Part shown: one piece after another, positions 22,080 to 39,325 of the stretch
How positions within the stretch are numbered: the first letter of the stretch is position 1
How the letters are laid out: each line of letters begins with the position of its first letter
Assembly (NCBI GenBank): GCA_965238265.1
Contig: OZ250185.1
Location: 4,217,497 to 4,281,496 of the forward strand
Origin: Chloroflexota bacterium
Lineage (GTDB): Bacteria; Chloroflexota; UBA11872; UBA12225; JAJDUF01
Direction: 5' to 3'
DNA: 64,000 nucleotides
Translations under genes and position numbers: made by a program
The notes under the pieces: model-generated
What the model saw: the letters and a program-made list of their open reading frames with translations, nothing else
Database searches by the model: none
Told to the model about the DNA's origin: nothing

Positions 22080-23774
22080 ATGGCTCGCACCGACTACGCC
22101 GCGATCCTGGCCGACCTGCCGCGAGAGCGCACGCAGCTCTTGCCGGCGCTGCGGGCAATCCACGCTGCCGAATCCTATCTCTCGGCCGAGGGGCTACGCG
22201 CCGTCTCCCGGCACCTCTTTGTGCCGGAAAGCACCGTCTACGGCATTGCGACCAGCTACAACGAGCTGCGTCTGGAGCAGCCGCACGGCCGGGTCGTCGG
22301 TGTCTGCACCTGCCTCAGCTGTCGCCAACATGGGGCGCACGAGCTACTGGCCGCGGCCCGCAGCCTCGCGGACGAGGTTGGTGGCTGCACCGTGGTCGAG
22401 CACGAGTGTCTGTTCATCTGCGACGCCGGTCCCGTGGCCGAGGTAGACGGACGCTGCATCACCGGCGCCACGCCGGAGATTCTGCGCGCCGCCCTGGCGT
22501 CGCCGGAGCCGCCGTCTCATCCCGTCCGTCCGGTCCGCGCCGCCCGGCCGCCGGAAGTGCGCCGCGTGCTGCGACGGTGCGCGGCGGTTGATCCCCTCTC
22601 CCTGGATTCCGCGCGTGCCGCTGGTGGCTATCAGGCCCTAGAGCGGGCGCAGGCGTTGGGACCGGAGGCAGTGATCGCGCTGATCGAGGCGGCTGGCCTG
22701 CGTGGTCGTGGGGGCGCCTATTTCCCGCTGGCAATCAAGTTGCAGACGGCGCATCAGTACGCCGGCCCGCGCTACTACGTGGTGAACGCCGAAGAGGGGG
22801 AGCCGGGGGTCTCCAAGGACCGTTACCTCATGGAATATGATCCGCACTTGCTCGTGGAAGGGATGCAGATTGCGGCCCTCGCCCTCGAAGCCGCGCGCAT
22901 CTATCTCTACATCAACGGGCAGGCTGATCTCTCCGCCGAACGGATGGGGATGGCACTGGCACAGGCGCAAGCCAGCGGCCTCCTGCCGGTCCCGGTCGAG
23001 GTGCGGCGCGGCGCTGGCGGCTACGTGTGCGGCGAGGAGTCGGTCATCCTCAACAGCATCGAGGGCGACCGGGCCGAGCCGCGGCTGAAGCCACCCCTGC
23101 CCGTCGAGCGGGGGCTATGGGGCCAGCCGACCGTCATCAGCAACGTCGAGACCCTGTGCAACGTGCCGCTGCTCGTGCAGCAGGGCCGCGAGTGGTATCG
23201 CTCCGTAGGAACCGACGACTTCCCCGGCACCAAAGTCATCAGTCTCGGCGGGGCCGTGCGCCGGCCGGGCACCTACGAAGTGCCGTTCGGCACGACCATC
23301 CGTACCGTCGTCGAAGAATTGGGCGGCGGCGCCCGCGACGGCCAAGCGATTCAGGCCGTGCTGTGTGGTGGACCATCGGGAGGCCTGATCCCGGCCGACC
23401 GGCTGGATATTCCCATCGCCGGCGGTCCGCTCGCCGACACTCACGCGATGCTCGGCGCCGGCGGGATAGTGGCCATTGACGACCGCCTACCCATCATCGC
23501 GGCCGTCGAGCACTTGTCAGCGTACAACGCCCGCGAATCGTGCGGGAAGTGTACGCCCTGCCGCGAAGGCATGGCGCACATGACCCGTCTCATCGGCTCG
23601 GTGCGTCGCGGCACAGCGGACGCGCTGGCGCTGGCCCAGTTGGACGCGCTACCCGAAGTCATCACCGCGGCCTCGCTGTGCGGCCTCGGCCAAGCCGCCC
23701 CGATGCCCTATCTCAGCCTCTGCCGCAGCTTCCCGGACGAGCTAAGGCCGCGGAACCCTTGCCCAAACGATTGA
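22080..23774 (+). CDS. NuoE-NuoF (diaphorase-type) fusion: 2Fe-2S, FMN/NAD and 4Fe-4S domains
   Basis: CTCLSC...CLFICD; GLRGRGGAYFP; EGEPG; YVCGEES; ESCGKCTPCREG; SLCGLG. Confidence 0.88.
   Translation: MARTDYAAILADLPRERTQLLPALRAIHAAESYLSAEGLRAVSRHLFVPESTVYGIATSYNELRLEQPHGRVVGVCTCLSCRQHGAHELLAAARSLADEVGGCTVVEHECLFICDAGPVAEVDGRCITGATPEILRAALASPEPPSHPVRPVRAARPPEVRRVLRRCAAVDPLSLDSARAAGGYQALERAQALGPEAVIALIEAAGLRGRGGAYFPLAIKLQTAHQYAGPRYYVVNAEEGEPGVSKDRYLMEYDPHLLVEGMQIAALALEAARIYLYINGQADLSAERMGMALAQAQASGLLPVPVEVRRGAGGYVCGEESVILNSIEGDRAEPRLKPPLPVERGLWGQPTVISNVETLCNVPLLVQQGREWYRSVGTDDFPGTKVISLGGAVRRPGTYEVPFGTTIRTVVEELGGGARDGQAIQAVLCGGPSGGLIPADRLDIPIAGGPLADTHAMLGAGGIVAIDDRLPIIAAVEHLSAYNARESCGKCTPCREGMAHMTRLIGSVRRGTADALALAQLDALPEVITAASLCGLGQAAPMPYLSLCRSFPDELRPRNPCPND
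23722..23744 (+). repeat. 23-bp direct repeat, second copy at 24445-24467 (att-like)
   Basis: GCCGCAGCTTCCCGGACGAGCTA versus GCCGCAACTTCCCGGACGAGCTA, one mismatch. Confidence 0.8.
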
Positions 23775-24531: not shown

Positions 24532-25467
24532 TCAAGACAACTCCTCTAGTCGCTCGAGATGGTATTCCGCTTCCTCTTCATCTGTTGAGTACCGGACTCT
24601 TTCGACTTTAGTAATGTCTGCCCGGTAGCGATGTCCAGGAAGTTCTACTCTATGGGAATCACTTATAGCATCCTCGTAAGAACCGCGTATTATGTCACCG
24701 GATTCTCCTCGCAATTTGAACCTTCTTACCTCAACGTCGACGGACAGAAGTTCTCCGTATACCGAGAATTCTACCTTTTCTTCATCACTTGTCTCTTCTA
24801 TCATCCGACACAGTTTTTCAAGCTCCGGTTGCTGTGCTAGTAAACTAGCTCGAACAGTGCTTTCGCGCCTCCATTCGATGTCTACGCCGAGACCTGCCTG
24901 GGCGTGACCGGATGCCCACTTGTGCATTGCTCGAATTGAGGCAAGGCCTAGCTTCTTGGTGAACACACGGATGTCAGATATGTGGCTAACTTTTGCTAGT
25001 GAGAATAGTTGTCTCATTGATTCGTCCAGGTGACTATCAAGAATAAGCCTTCTTGCATTAGGAATGGTGAGAACGACACCTAATGATCCAGAAAAAGTAT
25101 ATCCGAAGTTAAAGGAAGATTCAGACTTGATATGTGCAGCCGGTTTTGCTCGTTCTTTCGGAACGGAAGTTTTTTGGGAGTCGTAGACAACTGTCACCAA
25201 AGATTGAAAGTCTACTAGCCCTTGTGCAAGTGGATTCAGCGGGAGATATCCACTATCGCTAAAGATTCGATAGCTACAGACATCCATTCCCAAGCGATTG
25301 GCTTCAACTGCGAAGTCGGCCTCGAGATTTCGCTGCTGGGCCATCAGAGACCTTGCCAGAGCACTCAGGGACGGCTTGTCCGGTTGTTCGGCTACTGCTC
25401 GCTCTACCCGAGCCAACGTAGCACGAGTCTCTTGCAGTTGCTCTTGTAGCTCTAGGAGTCTAGTCAT
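24532..25467 (-). CDS. Uncharacterised 311-aa protein (N-terminal coiled coil, C-terminal beta-rich domain)
   Basis: Long ORF in AT-richer DNA; ATGA-coupled to the upstream NTase-like gene. Confidence 0.8.
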   Translation of the reverse strand: MTRLLELQEQLQETRATLARVERAVAEQPDKPSLSALARSLMAQQRNLEADFAVEANRLGMDVCSYRIFSDSGYLPLNPLAQGLVDFQSLVTVVYDSQKTSVPKERAKPAAHIKSESSFNFGYTFSGSLGVVLTIPNARRLILDSHLDESMRQLFSLAKVSHISDIRVFTKKLGLASIRAMHKWASGHAQAGLGVDIEWRRESTVRASLLAQQPELEKLCRMIEETSDEEKVEFSVYGELLSVDVEVRRFKLRGESGDIIRGSYEDAISDSHRVELPGHRYRADITKVERVRYSTDEEEAEYHLERLEELS

Positions 25468-25964
25468 GGCGTATCTCCGGCCAGTTCAATGACCGCTATA
25501 CCCTTGGGTGTCCGACCACGGGAATAGCCAAACAAGTTACTCCAGTAGTCACGCCTCTGCTTTCCCAGTAAGTAGTTAGGATCGTTCTCAGGAAACTCAG
25601 GGAAAACATAGCTATCGCAAAGATTGTATTCTTTCAAGTTCTCACCTATCCAGTCTATTGTCCTCCTTTGCTCAATCGTCCCATCATCGTACACCGATGA
25701 TGGGACTCGCAGCACAATGTCAACGTCACCAGGATTGATCTTCTCCGTCAGGAAACTCCCGTCAACCCAGAGTTCGCCAGCCACTTGATAGGCGCTCAAC
25801 CTCTCGACAACTTCCGCAAGTCCCGCCATGATCTTGGCGCGTGTCTTGGATAGAGGAAAGCTATCTACACAGTATCGCCGTAACACCTCAACTGACATTG
25901 GGTATCTACCTTCAGATAGCAGCGGCGGAAACTCATCCGCACTCGATGGGACCCCTCCTGTCAT
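25464..25964 (-). CDS. Pol-beta-like nucleotidyltransferase-fold protein (DUF6932-like)
   Basis: ELWVDGSFLTEKINPGDVDIV (GS...DxD), LL..G.Y N-terminus, PKGI C-terminus. Confidence 0.75.
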   Translation of the reverse strand: MTGGVPSSADEFPPLLSEGRYPMSVEVLRRYCVDSFPLSKTRAKIMAGLAEVVERLSAYQVAGELWVDGSFLTEKINPGDVDIVLRVPSSVYDDGTIEQRRTIDWIGENLKEYNLCDSYVFPEFPENDPNYLLGKQRRDYWSNLFGYSRGRTPKGIAVIELAGDTP

Positions 25965-31454: not shown

Positions 31455-32621
31455 CTAGACCTGGGGACCGATGCGGTATAGCGCGAATTCCGTGTGACCA
31501 ATGATCTCGGCACGGGTCAGCTCGCCGCTTGCGACGCGCAGCATCAGCTCGAATAGCTCATGGCCCAGGGTTTCCTTGTCGGCGGTTCCGGCGATCATGC
31601 CAGCGGCAGAGAAGTCCATGTTGTCGGCCATCCGCTCTGCCGTCTGGGGGTTTGCCGTGACCTTGATGACCGGGCCAAGCGCGTTGCCCACCGGTGAGCC
31701 GCGGCCCGTCGTGAAAATGCACACCTGTGCGCCCCCGGCAAGCTCACCGGAGACCGAAATGGGATCGTGGCCCGGCGTGTCCATCACCACCAGGCCCCGG
31801 CGCGTGGGCCGGTCGGCATAGCCGATGACCTCCTCGACGGTGGTCGTCCCGCCCTTGTAGATACAGCCGAGCGATTTCTCCTCGATGGTTGTCAGGCCGC
31901 CGGCGATATTCCCCGGCGTGGGATTGCCGCCGGCCACCGTCGCGCCGACGTGCTGCGCCTCTTTCTCCACGTTGGCCACGATCTCGAACAGCTGCCGAGA
32001 CACCTGCTCGTTGCGGGCGCGCCGCGCCAAGATATGCTCGGCCCCCATCAGCTCCGGTGTCTCCGCCAGGATGGACGTACCGCCCTGTTCGATCAGCAAG
32101 TCCGAGACCTCGCCGACCGTCGGATTCGAGGCCATGCCCGAGGTGGAATCCGACCCGCCGCATTGGGTAGCCAAGATCAGCTCCCCAACGGGTACCGCGC
32201 TCCGCTCGTCGTCCGCCACCTGGCGGAGCAGGTCCTTGGCGATGATGCAGCCGCGGCGGATCGCCTTGATCGAGCCGCCCTCGTCCTGGATCGCAATGGC
32301 CTCGTAACGCTTGCCGGGCGAGCGTTGTGCCGCCAGCGTGCGGACCCGCTCGGCCTCGCCCTGCTCGCCATCCAAACCCACCAGCAGCGCCGCGCCGACG
32401 TTGGGATTGGCGGCGGCGCCGGCCAGCGTCCACTCGGTCAGCCGGGTGTCATCGCCGAGCTGCGCCGCGCCGTGGGGATGGGCGAGCGCAATCACCCCCG
32501 GAACGAGGCGTGCAATGCGCTCGGCAACGGTACTGGCATACCCATTCGCCGGAATGGCGAGCACGTGATTACGGATACCCACCTGCCCGTCGGGGCGCCG
32601 ATAGCCCAGAAACGTCCGCAC
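31455..32621 (-). CDS. UxaA/GarD-family dehydratase large subunit, copy B
   Basis: GYRRPDG.VGIRN, CGGSDSTSG, GGLTTIEEKSLG, FTTGRG. Confidence 0.9.
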   Translation of the reverse strand: MRTFLGYRRPDGQVGIRNHVLAIPANGYASTVAERIARLVPGVIALAHPHGAAQLGDDTRLTEWTLAGAAANPNVGAALLVGLDGEQGEAERVRTLAAQRSPGKRYEAIAIQDEGGSIKAIRRGCIIAKDLLRQVADDERSAVPVGELILATQCGGSDSTSGMASNPTVGEVSDLLIEQGGTSILAETPELMGAEHILARRARNEQVSRQLFEIVANVEKEAQHVGATVAGGNPTPGNIAGGLTTIEEKSLGCIYKGGTTTVEEVIGYADRPTRRGLVVMDTPGHDPISVSGELAGGAQVCIFTTGRGSPVGNALGPVIKVTANPQTAERMADNMDFSAAGMIAGTADKETLGHELFELMLRVASGELTRAEIIGHTEFALYRIGPQV

Positions 32622-32729
32622 CTACCTACGCTCCCTTGTTCTCATTGATCCTCACTCCGGTAGGGGCGTCCCTTGTGGGTGCCCTGGATTCCCGCTTTCG
32701 CGGGAATGACCGGTCAATGTCAACACAAG

Positions 32730-33896
32730 CTACACCTGCGGGCCAATACGGTACAGCGCGAACTCCTCATGCCCGATGATCTCCGCGGCCGTCAGCTCGC
32801 CCTGCGCCACCTGTAGTGTCAAAGCGGTCAGCTCCGCTGCGAGCGCGTCCGGCGTGGCCGTCCCCTCGACGATTCCGGCCAGCGACAAGTCTATATTGTC
32901 ACCCATCCGCGCGGCCGTGCGTGGATTGGCGGTCACATTGATGACCGGGGCGAGCGCGTTGCCGACTGGTGAGCCGCGACCCGTCGTGGCAATACACAGT
33001 TGCGCTCCCCCGGTAACCATCCCGGTCAGCGCCACCGTATCGTGGCTGGGCGTATCCATCACGACCAGCCCCGAGCGAGTGGGCCGGTCGGAGAAGCCCA
33101 CCACTTCCTGTACCTCCGTCGTCCCGCTCTTGCGAATACAGCCCAGCGCCGCCTCGGCGCGCGCCCCGGAGCCGCCGTCTGCGCGCCCCGGTGATGTAGC
33201 CGGGCCGACGATGCTTTCGCCGACGTACTGCGCTTCGGCCTCTAGGCGGGCCACGATCTCGTAGAGCCGCTGGGCCGTCTCCTTGTCGCGGGCGCGGCGG
33301 GCCAGCGTCTGCTCGGCGCCGAAAAACTCCGCGGTCTCACCTAAGAGGACGGTCGCGCCCTGCGCGACGAGCCAGTCCGCAACGATCCCCACGGTCGGGT
33401 TGGCAGCAGTGCCCGAGGTGGCGTCGTAGCCCCCACACTCGGTCCCCACGATCAGCTCACTCAGCGGCGTCGGTTCCGGCTGCTGCGTCGCTACCTCGGC
33501 GACGAGCGCCCTCGTGGTCTCCACGCCGCGCTGGATGGCCTTGATCGAGCCACCGGCTTCCTGGATCGAGAAGCGTTCCAGATGCTTGCCGGGTGTCCGC
33601 TCTTGAGCGAGGTCGAGTACGTCAGTGGACTGGCAGGTTTCGCAGCCCAGGCCCACAATCAGCGCGGCAGCAACGTTCGGGTTGGCGGCAGCGCCGGCCA
33701 AGCTCCACATTGTCATCTGTACGTCGTCGCCAATCTGGGCACAGCCGTGTGGATGCGGCAGCGCCACCGTACCCGGCACGAGCTGCGCGATACGCTGGAC
33801 GACCGTATTCGCGCAGACCACCGCCGGGATGATCGCCACGTGGTTCCGCACCCCCACCGTCCCATCGGGGCGCCGATAACCCGGAAATGTCTCCAC
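32730..33896 (-). CDS. UxaA/GarD-family dehydratase large subunit, copy A
   Basis: GYRRPDG.VGVRN, HPHGC, GLGCE, TTGRG; GTG start with SD. Confidence 0.88.
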   Translation of the reverse strand: METFPGYRRPDGTVGVRNHVAIIPAVVCANTVVQRIAQLVPGTVALPHPHGCAQIGDDVQMTMWSLAGAAANPNVAAALIVGLGCETCQSTDVLDLAQERTPGKHLERFSIQEAGGSIKAIQRGVETTRALVAEVATQQPEPTPLSELIVGTECGGYDATSGTAANPTVGIVADWLVAQGATVLLGETAEFFGAEQTLARRARDKETAQRLYEIVARLEAEAQYVGESIVGPATSPGRADGGSGARAEAALGCIRKSGTTEVQEVVGFSDRPTRSGLVVMDTPSHDTVALTGMVTGGAQLCIATTGRGSPVGNALAPVINVTANPRTAARMGDNIDLSLAGIVEGTATPDALAAELTALTLQVAQGELTAAEIIGHEEFALYRIGPQV

Positions 33897-34824: not shown

Positions 34825-35003
34825 ACCCTCCGTCGGAGCAGTTGGTCGTGGCCCGCCTCCCTGGCCCGCCTCACCCCCGCCTGCCTCCGGCGGACTCCCT
34901 GGCTCCGGGGGTGAGGCAGGAAAGGGGCGCCCTCCCTAAGCGCCGCTGGGGTCCTGCCCTTGGGGTATTATCCAGGCTATATCGCCGGGGCTGGGGAGGC
35001 GCG

Positions 35004-36140
35004 ATGAAGATTACCCGCTTGCAGACGTACACCTTTTGGCGCGGTACCCGCAACGCGCTGCTGCTGAAGATCGAGACCGATGCGGGTATTCATGGCTGGG
35101 GCGAGGGCAGCATGGAGTGGATGGAGGACGTGGTTGCTGCCGCCATCCACAACTATCGGGAACTGCTGCTCGGCCGCAACCCGCTGGACAACCTCCGCCT
35201 GGTTGACGACCTCGCCCGGCGCTTCCCCTGGAAGGGCGGCCCGATTCTCGGTAGCGCCCTCTCCGCCATTGACATTGCCCTCTGGGATATTGTCGGCAAG
35301 GCGCGTGGGGCGCCGGTGTATGAGCTGCTCGGTGGCGCGCGACGCCGGAAGATGCGGGCTTATGCCAGCTACACCTTCCTCGACGTGGATGAGGCCGTCC
35401 GCCAGGCACGACACTGGACCGCGCAAGGGCTGACGGCGCTGAAGGCCAATCCCGCCGAGCAGCGGCGCTGGCCGTGGGACCGGCGGGCGATTGACGAGAC
35501 GGTGGCGGTGCTCGCGGCGCTGCGGGCCGCCGCCGGGCCGCACGTGGACTTGCTGCTGGACGCCCACGGCAGCCCCACACCGCTCCTGGCCGTGGCGCTG
35601 GCCGCGGCGATTGCCCCTTACCGGCCGCTGTTCCTCGAAGAGCCAACCCAATGGGGCGACATTGGGGCGCTCGTAGAAGTAGCCCAGCAGAGTCCGGTGC
35701 CTATCGCTACCGGCGAGAAGCTGATGGCGCTGACCGAGTTCCGCAATCTCTGCGACGCCCGCGCGGCCGCTATTCTCCAGCCCGATGTGTGTCACGCCTA
35801 CGGGATCACGGGCCTGCGCCGGATCGCCGAATTGGCGGAGCTGTATCAGTTGTGGATTGCGCCACACAATGCCAACGGCCCGGTGGGGACCGCCGCGGCG
35901 CTGCACGTGGACGCCGCCATCCACAACTTCTTGATCCAGGAAGGTGGTGGCAACTACCGCGAGTTTTTCTCGATCTTGCGGGAGCCATATCCCTATGAGG
36001 TGGTGGAGGGGTATTTCCGGCTATCCGGTCAGCCGGGCCTGGGGGTAGAGGTAGACGCCGCGGCGCTGGCCGCGCTGCCGCCACAACGGATGCCCATCCG
36101 CCAATACCGACACGAGGACGGTAGCTGGTCCGGGTGGTAG
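35004..36140 (+). CDS. Mandelate racemase/galactonate dehydratase (DgoD-like) enolase-superfamily enzyme
   Basis: KIETDAGIHGWGE, SAIDIALWDI.GK, DAHG, FLEEP, ATGE, QPD, APHN. Confidence 0.88.
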   Translation: MKITRLQTYTFWRGTRNALLLKIETDAGIHGWGEGSMEWMEDVVAAAIHNYRELLLGRNPLDNLRLVDDLARRFPWKGGPILGSALSAIDIALWDIVGKARGAPVYELLGGARRRKMRAYASYTFLDVDEAVRQARHWTAQGLTALKANPAEQRRWPWDRRAIDETVAVLAALRAAAGPHVDLLLDAHGSPTPLLAVALAAAIAPYRPLFLEEPTQWGDIGALVEVAQQSPVPIATGEKLMALTEFRNLCDARAAAILQPDVCHAYGITGLRRIAELAELYQLWIAPHNANGPVGTAAALHVDAAIHNFLIQEGGGNYREFFSILREPYPYEVVEGYFRLSGQPGLGVEVDAAALAALPPQRMPIRQYRHEDGSWSGW

Positions 36141-36377: not shown

Positions 36378-37470
36378 TTAGGGCCTATAGTGTATGGAGA
36401 TGTCCTGGGCCGCGTGCTCAATCCAGTCCCAATGGGCCAAGGACCGTACCCGTTCCGGCGCCGTCTCCAACGCCGTCAGGAACTCGTTGACCGCCGCCAC
36501 CTTGTCCTCAAGACCCTCGTACACCTGCCCCTCGATCCAGCGACGGCCTTCTTCGAACACCCGCGCGGCCGGGTTCAACTCCGGGCGGTACGGTGGCAGC
36601 CCTAGCAGTGGCAGACCGACGGTCTCCACCGGGCGCCTCCGGTGCCCGCGCGCTCCATCCCCCCACCGCTTCCACATCGGTCTGCTGCTGCCGTCCCTTC
36701 AGCGCCGCGGCGAGCTGCTCGCCTTGCATGGAATCGATCCGGGTCCAGAGCAGCTTCCCCCTCCGGCCATTCCCCACCAGGAACAGGTACCGCCCCGCAG
36801 AGCCCAACTGCACCCGCTGACACACCGGCACCCCACGCGCGCCCCAGTCCCCGCCGCCCCGCACGCCGCTCATCGGCGAAGCCAACGGGGGGCTGCCCGC
36901 TCACGCCAGCCTGGCTGAACGCGTGGCCAAGCCCCCCTTTTTCTAGGACTGCTGCTGTTGCGGGGCAGCTTGGACCTGCACTGGACGGGGGAACTGCGGA
37001 GCACCCCCCCCAGCCGGTCGAGCAGCCTGTACGTGCCGCCCATCGCGTAGCCCCCCGCGTGCTGCGCGGCTGTCCAGTCCCTGATCTCGGCTGCCGTCCG
37101 AAATCTGCCGGTGGCCACCGCCTTGACCACGGACCGTTGGGCCGCCTCGCTCAGGTACGGCCGGTGGCCGCGGCCGCCCTTCCGGTGCGAGACCACCGCC
37201 CTCAGGCCGCCCTCTCGATCCCAACGCACCCCCTGCTGCACGGTACGATAGTGAACACCCCCCGCCGCTGCCACCGAGGGGAGCCGCCACCCCGACCGCC
37301 ACCGCCACAGCCGGTGAACCCTGCTTCTGGTTGAGATGGCGCGTTCGGCCAGATCGGCCGCCTTCAGCGCCGCCGGCGTATCCTGGGGATGCCCATCCAC
37401 GCTGAACGGTCTGCCGATCATGCTCACCTCCCGCACGCCGCTGCCTGTGGCACAATGGGACAATCGGCCT
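36378..37470 (-). mobile_element. Decayed IS630-family element
   Basis: HTH part (GVHYRTVQQ...GGL), FADE, LPPYRPELNPA.RV; frameshifted. Confidence 0.85.
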
Positions 37471-37505
37471 CAAACACCAGCGAGATGCTTTATGCCCCTA
37501 GCTAA

Positions 37506-39325
37506 CAAAAATGGTATTACTTACTCCAATTGTTGGATGATGTTTCCAAGGGCAGAGTCGCGGCAGGAGATTTACTCAGTGAAGTGATTCGATCCCTCTT
37601 GGTCATACGTGATGAGAGGGACAATCGCATGGCTACTCTCTTGGCAAGCCTGCGGCCGTCCGGTGAGCGACTGCTCTTGTCGGCAGAAGAGATTGTCAGT
37701 CTCATCGAGCAACATCTTCAATGTCGAAATGCCAGCCGGCTTCCTGTGCTGGTTGTCGCGGCTGCGTATCGAGCCGCTGCCAACTGGATAGGGGAGTGCC
37801 CCCCTCACAGGGGTAGGTTTTTTAGAAACAGCACGATGACACGGCGCCCGACCGGGCGGCATGCTGGGAATGCTCACCATTCCAGCACCGTCAGGAGGGA
37901 CGCCAGGTCAGCGCCGCCCAGTGTAGCGCAATGGACCCAGATCGTCGCTACGCACCGGCCGCACTGGAGCCACTCCCAGGCTACCGTCCTCGCCTGGTGG
38001 AGTCTGGGTCTGGTGCTGGCCCGCTCCGGTGGCCTTACTGCCGTCAGCGCCTTCTTGGCCAGCCTGCTGGACCGCAAGGAGCACACCGTGCGTCAGCAAC
38101 TCCGCGAGTGGTGCTACGAAGCAGCGGCCAAACGGGGCGTCCAGCGCCAGGCGCTCGTCGTGGAAGCGTGTTTTGGCCCCTTGCTGCGGTGGGTGTTGCA
38201 TTGGTGGCAGGGGCCACAGTTAGCCGTGGCGCTCGATGCGACCACCTTGGGCGATCGGTTTGTGGTCTTGGCGATCAGCGTGCTCTACCGCGGCGGTACC
38301 ATCCCCGTGGCCTGGACGGTCTTGCCGGCCACGGCCAAAGGGGCCTGGAAAGCCGACTGGCTGCGCTGGCGGCCGCACTGGCAAGCTAGCGTGCCGGCGA
38401 CCATGACGGTCCTCGTCTTGGCCGACCGGGGACGGTACGCCCGCTGGCTGTTTCCGGCGATTGTCCACCTGGGGTGGCACCCCTTGCTGCGGGTCAACGC
38501 CGGGGGGCTGTTTCGCCCCAGCGGCCGGGCGCGCTGGCACGGGCTGCCCACGTTTGCCCCCCCCAGCCTGGCACCCGCTGGGAGGGCACCGGCACGGCGT
38601 TCAAGACCGCCCCCTGGGCTGGTACCTTCCTGGCCTGTTGGGAAGCCGACCAGGGCGAGCCGTGGCTGCTGGTCACCGCCCGCCCGCCCGCGGCCAGCAC
38701 CGCGGCCTGGTCAGCGTGTTTCGGCGGGGCTGGATCACCAGCTTGGTGGCGCTGCTCCGGCAGGCCCCGCTCCCGACCGGCCAGCTGATTCCCGAGCCGT
38801 GGCCGGCCCCGCGGGGCCCGTTGGTCGTTGGAAGACACCATGCGTTCTAAAAAACCTACCCCTGTGAGGGGGCGCCCCCTCCATCTAATGTCGCATACGG
38901 CAGCGGATACTCGGACTGGATCATTAGGGGACGTGGAGATTAGGCTGGTGAACGACGATCAGGTTGTTACCAGCTATGAGATGAAGGACCGGCGTCTCAC
39001 TATTGAAGATATTGACCAAACACTACAGAAGTTGACGGAAATCCCAAATAGTATAGACAACTATATATTCATCACGACCGATGTCATTAACGAAGAGACA
39101 AAAGCATACGCTGATAGTCTGTACGGCCGCACAGGCGGCACTGAGGTTGCCATTCTCGACTGCATCGGGTTTCTGCGACACTTCTTGCATCTCTTTCATC
39201 GCTTACGCCTTGACTTCCTCGACGCATACCAGAAGTTGGTCTTGGACGAGCCGGATAGTGCCGTGAGCCAGCCGCTCAAAGAAGCCTTCCTCGCGCTACG
39301 GCTTGTTGCTGAATCTGATGCGTGA
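37506..39325 (+). pseudogene. SacI-like type II restriction endonuclease, 5'-truncated and split by an IS
   Basis: ASRLPVLVVAAAY...SHTAAD.RTG.LGDVE...YEMK (PD-(D/E)xK); removing 37798-38873 rejoins both halves in frame. Confidence 0.7.
37800..38872 (+). mobile_element. IS4-like element with perfect 28-bp terminal inverted repeats and a decayed transposase
   Basis: CCCCCTCACAGGGGTAGGTTTTTTAGAA at 37800-37827, reverse complement at 38845-38872; ALDATTLGDRF, IPVAW, LADRG. Confidence 0.88.

Follow-up and report, generated by a model that had tools for sequence, protein, structure and literature searches.

The locus and its two genes

Two paralogous genes for large subunits of the UxaA/GarD type lie head to tail on the minus strand of a 64,000-nucleotide stretch of DNA (hereafter the window) from a Chloroflexota bacterium (assembly GCA_965238265.1, contig OZ250185.1, positions 4,217,497 to 4,281,496). 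They are called A and B here. The list of open reading frames (ORFs) and their translations shows two ORFs of 388 codons, each with its frame intact. A keeps the N-terminal cysteine motifs of the family and has a degenerate catalytic loop, B keeps the loop and has lost the N-terminal motifs, and both genes are under purifying selection. Whichever model of the active site holds, it is likely that A and B are parts of one enzyme. A preliminary description of the window had stated that both frames are intact and finish in the same EFALYRIGPQV, and the translations, each of 388 amino acids (aa), agree. The features of the pair are as follows; dN/dS is the ratio of nonsynonymous to synonymous substitution rates, AF2 is AlphaFold2, and pLDDT is its per-residue confidence score (predicted local distance difference test).

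32730..33896, minus strand: gene A, 388 aa, UxaA/GarD-type large subunit without SAF, "A-type" (ORF and translation)
31455..32621, minus strand: gene B, 388 aa, UxaA/GarD-type large subunit without SAF, "B-type" (ORF and translation)
33477..33896, minus strand: A residues 1-140, second domain with VVCA, HPHGC and GLGCETCQ (motif table, dN/dS)
33147..33212, minus strand: A residues 229-250, degenerate remnant of the family loop NPxPGNxxGG(L/I)(T/S)T(I/L)EEKSLG (motif table, orthologs, dN/dS)
32202..32621, minus strand: B residues 1-140, second domain without the cysteine motifs (dN/dS, AF2 pLDDT)
31872..31937, minus strand: B residues 229-250, intact catalytic loop VAGGNPTPGNIAGGLTTIEEKS (motif tables, alignment, dN/dS)
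32622..32729, minus strand: spacer between A and B, 108 nucleotides (nt) (sequence and site scan)

By their domains and fold both proteins belong to the UxaA/GarD superfamily (COG2721). Pfam identifies GD_AH_second (1.3e-39, 135.8 bits) and GD_AH_C (1.4e-75, 254.2 bits) in A, and the same two domains in B (2.1e-30, 106 bits, and 1.6e-94, 316.2 bits); the gathering cut-offs are 27.3 bits for GD_AH_second and 26.8 bits for GD_AH_C. No SAF (beta-clip) domain was found by Pfam in either protein, and no SAF ORF adjoins the pair. Against the galactarate dehydratase equivalog TIGR03248, A scores 210.6 bits and B scores 227.1 bits, both under the cut-off of 730.85. The two sequences are 59% identical over 388 residues with zero gaps, and the database protein P0003 (388 aa) is identical to A. 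A and B are the sole GD_AH_C genes of the complete 4.38-Mb genome. In the spacer an AAGGGAG stands 10 nt ahead of the GTG start of B, and a scan of its 108 nt found no promoter-like or terminator-like site. The spacer measures 93 to 247 nt across eight orthologous loci.

Reciprocal loss of conserved residues

All of the motifs quoted for A and B in the preliminary description were found in the motif table. Those of A are VVCA, HPHGC, GLGCE (continuing as TCQ), ECGGYD and ..ATSPGRADGGSGARAEAALG, and the corresponding motifs of B are NGYA, HPHGA, GLDGE, QCGGSD and ..NPTPGNIAGGLTTIEEKSLG. A holds Cys28, Cys52, Cys85, Cys88 and Cys154; its Ser157 is replaced by Tyr and its catalytic loop is degenerate. 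In B, Cys28 is replaced by Tyr, Cys52 by Ala and Cys85 by Gly, and Cys154, GGSD and the catalytic loop are intact. Cys154, the fourth family cysteine, which belongs to the CGGxD motif, is present in both A and B.

The complementary loss claimed for the pair recurs in 32 A-type and 33 B-type proteins. The sorted set consisted of 117 full-length sequences from the best 120 matches to A, plus A and B themselves, and was divided by motif into 52 canonical proteins (three cysteines and the loop), 32 A-types and 33 B-types. At 101 positions the 52 canonical relatives are at least 90% conserved, and 51 of these positions are retained in both A- and B-types. Fifteen are lost in the A-types only, all in the C-domain (S157, G162, H196, E219, P234, P236, G237, N238, G241, T245, E247, K249, S250, G284 and F303), and 11 are lost in the B-types only, eight of them in the N-domain (C28, G51, C52, D58, G84, C85, E86, Q112, M293, Q299 and P310). 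With the class-defining positions excluded, the N-domain has none of the A-only losses and the C-domain has 13, and the corresponding numbers of B-only losses are 5 and 3 (Fisher p = 0.003, a value that is descriptive only because the sequences share kinship). The reciprocal pattern exceeds chance.

Cys28, Cys52, Cys85 and Cys88 are invariant in the A-types (32/32), and Cys154 is found in 31 of the 32 A-types and in all 33 B-types. The loop remnant of A varies, shortens or is deleted among orthologs, and some A-types have lost approximately residues 189-266 altogether. The loop of B is identical in all B-types of the motif tables, and residues 231-253 are invariant in an alignment of 29 B sequences.

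The accessible part of Watanabe et al. (PMC6336799) describes four cysteines as conserved across the UxaA/GarD superfamily, sulfolactate sulfo-lyase excepted, and proposes them as the iron site of the Fe2+-dependent dehydratases of the family. The enzyme studied there is brown, and its electron paramagnetic resonance (EPR) signals were likened to rubredoxin-type ferric iron and a [3Fe-4S]+ cluster (PMC6336799, same part). Cys134, Cys173, Cys208 and Cys276 of C785_RS13685 correspond to positions 28, 52, 85 and 154 here; this mapping, by offset and motif, is our own. Of the proposed iron-site cysteines A has four out of four and B has Cys154 only, and the full set of motifs occurs only in the pair combined.

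Selection on the two genes

Nei-Gojobori estimates of dN/dS were made on nine orthologous A-B pairs (36 comparisons). For A the values are 0.080 for the whole gene, 0.046 for the N-domain, 0.099 for the C-domain and 0.33 for loop residues 225-252. For B they are 0.065, 0.100, 0.044 and 0.018, respectively. The strongest constraint in each copy falls where the family motifs survive, so that A and B mirror each other by region. Residues 1-140 of B are still constrained though the cysteine motifs are gone, and the AF2 model of B gives this block a pLDDT of 74-98. Neither gene is decaying and both are under purifying selection. The preliminary description had raised the decay of both copies as an objection to its own proposal. 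Purifying selection on A and B removes that objection, and the reading of the two genes as pseudogenes is ruled out by these values.

Distribution of A-types and B-types

The same reciprocal pair, which the preliminary description had suggested looking for elsewhere, adjoins in all nine genomes of the genus, the eight others each having two adjacent matches. In the sister family of the same order, all 14 genomes carry the UxaA/GarD family. One A-type and one B-type, on separate contigs, are found in nine of these draft genomes; an A-type alone is present in three (77-83% complete) and a B-type alone in two (72 and 89% complete). Some sister-family A-types with the deletion of approximately residues 189-266, and with no Cys154, still pair with a B-type (G411, G414 and G415), and these same proteins retain VVCA, HPHGC and GLGCETCQ. 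The A/B arrangement is not peculiar to this genome.

Across an even sample of the phylum, 73 of 401 genomes carry the family. In this sample 85 stretches were inspected, which were 80 chosen matches and five tandem or fused loci, with a few partial matches left out. No A-type beyond the window's own genome was seen among these 85 stretches. Several clades in the sample have a cysteine-less protein with an intact loop as the sole family gene, which indicates that the three N-domain cysteines are dispensable for some family members, and SAF genes adjoin three of the inspected cysteine-less genes (L086, L112 and L006).

Tandem large-subunit genes were seen at loci of other Chloroflexota as well. 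At L006:2923-5698 two large-subunit paralogs without the cysteines, each with an intact loop (KCGHSD and KCGYSD), come after a SAF gene, the same two paralogs are found at L007:2857-5294, and L005 has a tandem of two fully canonical copies. These tandems indicate that large-subunit pairs are common in the family without reciprocal loss. Lar_N (lactate-racemase N-terminal-like) genes lie beside UxaA-like genes at three loci (L005:1716-2966, L006:5759-7009 and L037:3980-5443); the three loci are unrelated, and one of these genes adjoins an A-type gene.

A fused form with the same division of residues

In three genomes of the phylum sample one long ORF consists of a SAF-like N-terminus, a first module and a second module. 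The SAF-like N-terminus was recognised by eye and received no score from Pfam. The first module is cysteine-less and has QCGGSD and a recognisable loop. The second has the three cysteine motifs and no match over approximately positions 163-265 of the hidden Markov model (HMM). Of 8000 candidates scored in a search with the second module, 3329 proteins reached E <= 1e-3, and the counts given for the fused form rest on the best 120 of these 3329 (P0123-P0242), which are 743-935 aa long, about 900 aa. This widespread form occurs in Caldilineaceae, Litorilinea, a number of cultured Paenibacillus, Latescibacteria and other sources, and the proteins carry only the generic names "UxaA family hydrolase" or "altronate dehydratase".

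In all 120 proteins the first module has, at positions 28, 52, 85 and 154, the cysteine pattern "...C", and it has 9-10 of the 15 residues kept in B. The second module has "CCC." in 119 proteins and "CCCC" in one, with 7-8 of the 11 residues kept in A and 0-2 of the 15 kept in B. The four family cysteines of the fused form are divided, three on the second module and the fourth on the first, which is the trace expected from a site that is shared between modules. The joining of B-like and A-like modules in one chain indicates that the two kinds act together.

A free-standing SAF protein

The preliminary description had stated that no SAF-domain small subunit is adjacent. None lies by the pair, and to that extent the statement holds; it missed a conserved, free-standing SAF protein 2.96 Mb away. 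The genome has two SAF matches, one within a 451-aa oxidoreductase and the other a protein of 121 aa that stands alone (G000:C1:1289717-1290082; L001:1438-1803). The free-standing protein has 47% and 49% identity with SAF small subunits that are encoded directly upstream of UxaA-like genes in other Chloroflexota, and it shares with them the motifs DNVA, FGHKIAL, KYGE.IG and VHVHN. Its gene follows one for a carbon-nitrogen hydrolase; next to it, on the opposite strand, is a gene with a transketolase N-terminal domain, and no dehydratase gene adjoins.

A SAF match is present in all nine genomes of the genus and in 12 of the 14 genomes of the sister family, and in six sister-family genomes it sits 2-3 kb from the A-type gene on the same contig. 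The nearest canonical clade likewise has a SAF gene that is unlinked from the large subunit. Because A and B are the sole large subunits in the genome, the free-standing protein is assigned to them and is probably, judging from sequence, their small subunit. Its conservation suggests that the enzyme is probably one of three parts and not two.

Structural models

The only solved relative is E. coli GarD (6u7l), which phmmer finds with an E value of 8.8e-57. In a Foldseek search the AF2 model of B matched 6u7l_A with an E value of 1.3e-27 and a template modelling (TM) score of 0.79, and no other chain had an E value below 1e-3. Dimerisation in GarD reportedly takes place through the second domain, and its Ca2+ site is said to lie in the C-domain.

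The preliminary description had proposed modelling A and B together. The A:B complex was predicted with ESMFold2, to which alignments of A and B were supplied, and it has an ipSAE (an interface score computed from predicted aligned errors) of 0.88 (0.88-0.89 between runs), against 0.00 for the best of three controls. Among solved complexes 58 of 80 attain the ipSAE mark applied, as do 2 of 110 mismatched pairs. The runs have at least 89% of their contacts in common, with a partner pLDDT of at least 89. On the side of A the predicted interface includes residues 27-28, 52-53, 83-85 and 111-112, so that Cys28, Cys52 and Cys85 are placed at the interface and face the C-domain of B. Six of the 11 positions kept in A (28, 52, 84, 85, 112 and 310) are predicted interface residues of A, and nine of the 11 lie within two residues of one. 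On the side of B the interface comprises residue 156, residues 218-229, 283-288, 307-312 and 330-334, and the tail 374-388, and the confident contacts include A:27-B:287 and A:31-B:374-376. GarD is a homodimer that has already been solved, and the high score may be a memory of that dimer.

The catalytic loop has low confidence in both monomer models, and the A:B model does not place it. Disorder of the loop was considered as a sign of degeneration in A and was rejected, since the conserved loop of B (236-243) likewise has a pLDDT below 50. Residues 371-388 of A and of B (32730-32786 and 31455-31511) have low confidence in the monomer models. In the A:B model this C-terminal tail, with the EFALYRIGPQV end, is a confident part of the interface and contacts residues 31, 35 and 117 of the partner near the cysteine face. 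The tail may be inserted in trans.

Phylogeny

All A- and B-types and one canonical-looking protein, P0017, form one clade (support 100/99), whose sister is a canonical clade of the same class. In the careful tree the A and B of this genome group together as sisters (100/96) and separately from the remaining A- and B-types (95/93), and a quick tree of the N-domain only gave the same grouping (98). An approximately unbiased (AU) test rejects a single clade of all B-types (p = 0.0048, log-likelihood difference 50.7); the test was chosen after the tree was seen, and the classes had been set earlier from motifs. A single ancient duplication that gave one A clade and one B clade is supported by neither the tree nor the AU test.

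It is conceivable from the tree that the A/B split could have arisen two or three times. The same tree could come about through gene conversion between the tandem copies or through a similar amino-acid composition within a single high-G+C genome, and independent origin is for that reason not taken as shown. The fused modules branch far from A and B on long branches, and B groups apart from the cysteine-less, SAF-linked clades. P0017 is a metagenomic protein of 392 aa that has all the cysteines and an intact loop (ECGDSD), yet it is sister to one A-type clade (97/93). It may be a partner that is not yet degenerate, or a sign that the loop was lost late in the A lineage.

Neighbouring genes

The conserved gene order is a methyltransferase, A, B, a 98-aa membrane protein, a 302-aa protein without a known family and a short-chain dehydrogenase/reductase (SDR). 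All eight orthologous loci carry the genes from A through the SDR, and seven of the eight have the methyltransferase. The conserved neighbours gave no clue to the substrate, and no consistent set of neighbours surrounds the unlinked A- and B-types. The substrate is presumably a hydroxy-carboxylate such as a sugar acid.

Past the upstream methyltransferase gene and on the opposite strand lies a mandelate racemase/muconate-lactonizing gene of the enolase superfamily (34992-36140, plus strand), and near it are transposase-like ORFs (36378-38867) without a Pfam match. This gene was considered as a sugar-acid partner and was dropped because it is absent at the eight orthologous loci and is followed by the transposase-like ORFs. 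The stretch looks like a local rearrangement outside the operon. At 24532-25964 on the minus strand are two ORFs, one of 311 aa without a family and one of 166 aa (DUF6932), with a G+C content of 49-57%. The surrounding window is mostly 62-72% G+C, and G+C at third codon positions (GC3) is 0.43-0.53 in these ORFs versus about 0.8 in their neighbours; the stretch is possibly acquired DNA. At 22080-23774 on the plus strand is a 564-aa NuoF-like protein in which an N-terminal thioredoxin-like [2Fe-2S] domain is fused to flavin mononucleotide (FMN) and 4Fe-4S domains.

A proposed composite site and its alternatives

The reading that we favour, with some reserve, is that A, B and the SAF protein make up one enzyme in which the large subunits pair as in GarD and a single composite active site is built from the N-domain of A and the C-domain of B. 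A and B would be two unlike large subunits of one hydro-lyase of the UxaA/GarD family, and the free-standing 121-aa SAF protein would be its likely third part. The large subunits would pair through their second domains in the GarD fashion, which would turn the cysteine face on the second domain of one chain towards the partner's C-terminal domain. With such an arrangement a symmetric homodimer would hold two sites that span the interface, and after duplication one of the two would have been retained. To the retained site A would contribute Cys28, Cys52 and Cys85 of the proposed iron site, and B would contribute Cys154-Gly-Gly-Ser157, His196, Glu219, the 234-250 loop and Gly284. The mirror site, made of the N-domain of B and the C-domain of A, would have degenerated on both sides.

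The observed support consists of the reciprocal loss, the purifying selection, the co-occurrence and the fused form. Sequence comparison and the structural model suggest, beyond this, that the chains pair physically, that the site is built in trans, that iron has a role and that the SAF protein takes part. The preliminary description had proposed subfunctionalised, interdependent paralogs with a composite site formed in trans; the in silico evidence supports this, and the trans site itself is what we infer from it.

Several points weigh against a composite site. There are single-copy relatives that lack the cysteines and have a SAF gene beside them, so B and the SAF protein might act without A. 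Cys154 and Ser157 are neighbours in one chain, which suggests contact within that chain between the iron site and the loop site as well. The retention of Cys154 in B is not diagnostic, because 31 of 32 A-types also have this residue, as do cysteine-less clades without an A partner. Most B-types have changed P310, which A retains, the opposite of the simplest prediction for a site in trans. Of the 15 residues kept in B only G284 is a confident interface residue, with two more within two residues, and the loop has a pLDDT below 50 at A 228-241 and B 236-243 in the monomer models. The score of the A:B model may reflect likeness to the solved GarD homodimer and not a preference of A for B. In the sister family the genes are unlinked, and one type only is found in 5 of 14 genomes.

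Could B be a complete enzyme by itself? It is possible, and to us clearly less probable than the composite site, that B, probably with the SAF protein, is a cysteine-independent lyase like SuyAB, and that A is a non-catalytic iron-cysteine paralog, the two having separate sites. A would then be a scaffold, a stabiliser or an iron/redox-sensing regulator of B. Cysteine-less genes with an intact loop that are the sole family gene in many Chloroflexota genomes, some with SAF adjoining (L086, L112 and L006), speak for this, as does sulfolactate sulfo-lyase, an active enzyme of SAF and a large subunit that the accessible part of Watanabe et al. (PMC6336799) excepts from the conservation of the four cysteines. 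The residues lost by A include typical acid/base and metal ligands (H196, E219, E247 and K249), the presence of Cys154 in 31 of 32 A-types gives A a full four-cysteine set in cis, and Cys154 and Ser157 adjoin in one chain. However, in the fused proteins the cysteine-bearing module is without Cys154 in 119 of 120 cases and the cysteine-less module has it in 120 of 120, which makes a self-contained cysteine site hard to defend. The cysteines of A are also at the predicted A:B interface, and the role of a scaffold poorly accounts for the cysteine face being the most constrained part of A (dN/dS 0.046).

A and B might instead be independent enzymes that form separate homo-oligomers with unrelated activities and are neighbours by tandem duplication only, a view consistent with a start of its own for each gene, a spacer that varies from 93 to 247 nt, the separate contigs of the two types in the sister family and the single type in 5 of its 14 genomes. 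We regard it as improbable: A-types without the loop, or with approximately residues 189-266 deleted, are selected and still stand alongside a B-type (G411, G414 and G415), a B-like part is fused to an A-like part in all 120 of the long proteins, and the genomes with a single type are merely 72-89% complete. That A and B are decaying duplicates which lost opposite motifs by chance has next to no likelihood. The altered motifs themselves, and nothing more, speak for it, but the frames are intact, dN/dS is 0.080 and 0.065, the pair is kept in all nine genomes of the genus, and the same split is seen in about 65 unfused and 120 fused proteins. The composite site of A and B accordingly stays the reading that we would put ahead of these others.

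Significance

UxaA/GarD enzymes are widespread in the breakdown of sugar acids and sulfonates, and their mechanism is poorly understood. The roles of the four cysteines and of iron are debated from EPR alone, and the only structure, that of GarD, holds Ca2+ and no iron. The A/B split is a natural separation of function, in which the cysteine set and the loop set lie repeatedly, and under selection, on different chains or modules. It offers a direct test of two questions. Is the iron-cysteine centre in the catalytic site? Does the site lie across the dimer interface? Thousands of database entries named "UxaA family hydrolase" or "altronate dehydratase large subunit" may be proteins that are non-catalytic alone (the A-types) or parts of three-component enzymes.

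A broader and more tentative idea is that a site spanning the interface is general to the superfamily. Three second-domain cysteines would hold a labile, aconitase-like iron or iron-sulfur centre with an open coordination position; opposite this centre the partner chain would present its CGGSD turn, catalytic loop and C-terminal tail. The enzyme of A, B and SAF and the fused SAF-B-A form would be versions with one site per dimer that arose more than once. If this is true, the split and fused forms expose a mechanism that the GarD crystal structure did not reveal.

Comparison with known systems

A literature search, which covered few subscription journals, found no publication on two unlike large subunits with mirrored losses or on the fused double-module form. 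GarD (6u7l) and UxaA have the same fold of second and C-terminal domains as A and B; the family cysteines are found in A and the loop motifs in B. GarD and UxaA differ in having SAF and both motif sets in one chain and in forming homo-oligomers, whereas here each of the three parts would have its own gene, and the two motif sets are not combined in any chain.

Heteromeric members of the superfamily include SuyAB and a predicted two-gene L-fuconate dehydratase of Paraburkholderia, according to the accessible part of PMC6336799. Like the system described here, these have a separate SAF small subunit and a large subunit without SAF, and SuyB, by its description there, resembles B in being without the conserved cysteines; unlike it, they have a single kind of large subunit (PMC6336799, same part). 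Here two paralogous large subunits have mirrored losses, and the SAF gene is unlinked, 2.96 Mb off. The fused proteins of about 900 aa (P0123-P0242) also have SAF, B-like and A-like parts and the same split of residues. They differ from A and B in carrying all parts in one polypeptide, and their modules are distant in the tree.

A and B fit the class of complementary degenerate paralogs, with reciprocal loss, selection and co-occurrence all observed, and they add a bacterial example to the few enzymes that are made in this way. In mode of action the closest known analogue appears to be the deoxyhypusine synthase of trypanosomatids, whose active sites reportedly lie at the subunit interface and whose paralogs are said to have complementary losses. 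The likeness would be one of mechanism and not of membership, as the fold, the chemistry and the kingdom are different. The accessible part of PMC3663545 describes that enzyme as a complex of a catalytically impaired paralog and a dead one, so that paralogs which are deficient singly work as a hetero-oligomer, as is proposed here for A and B.

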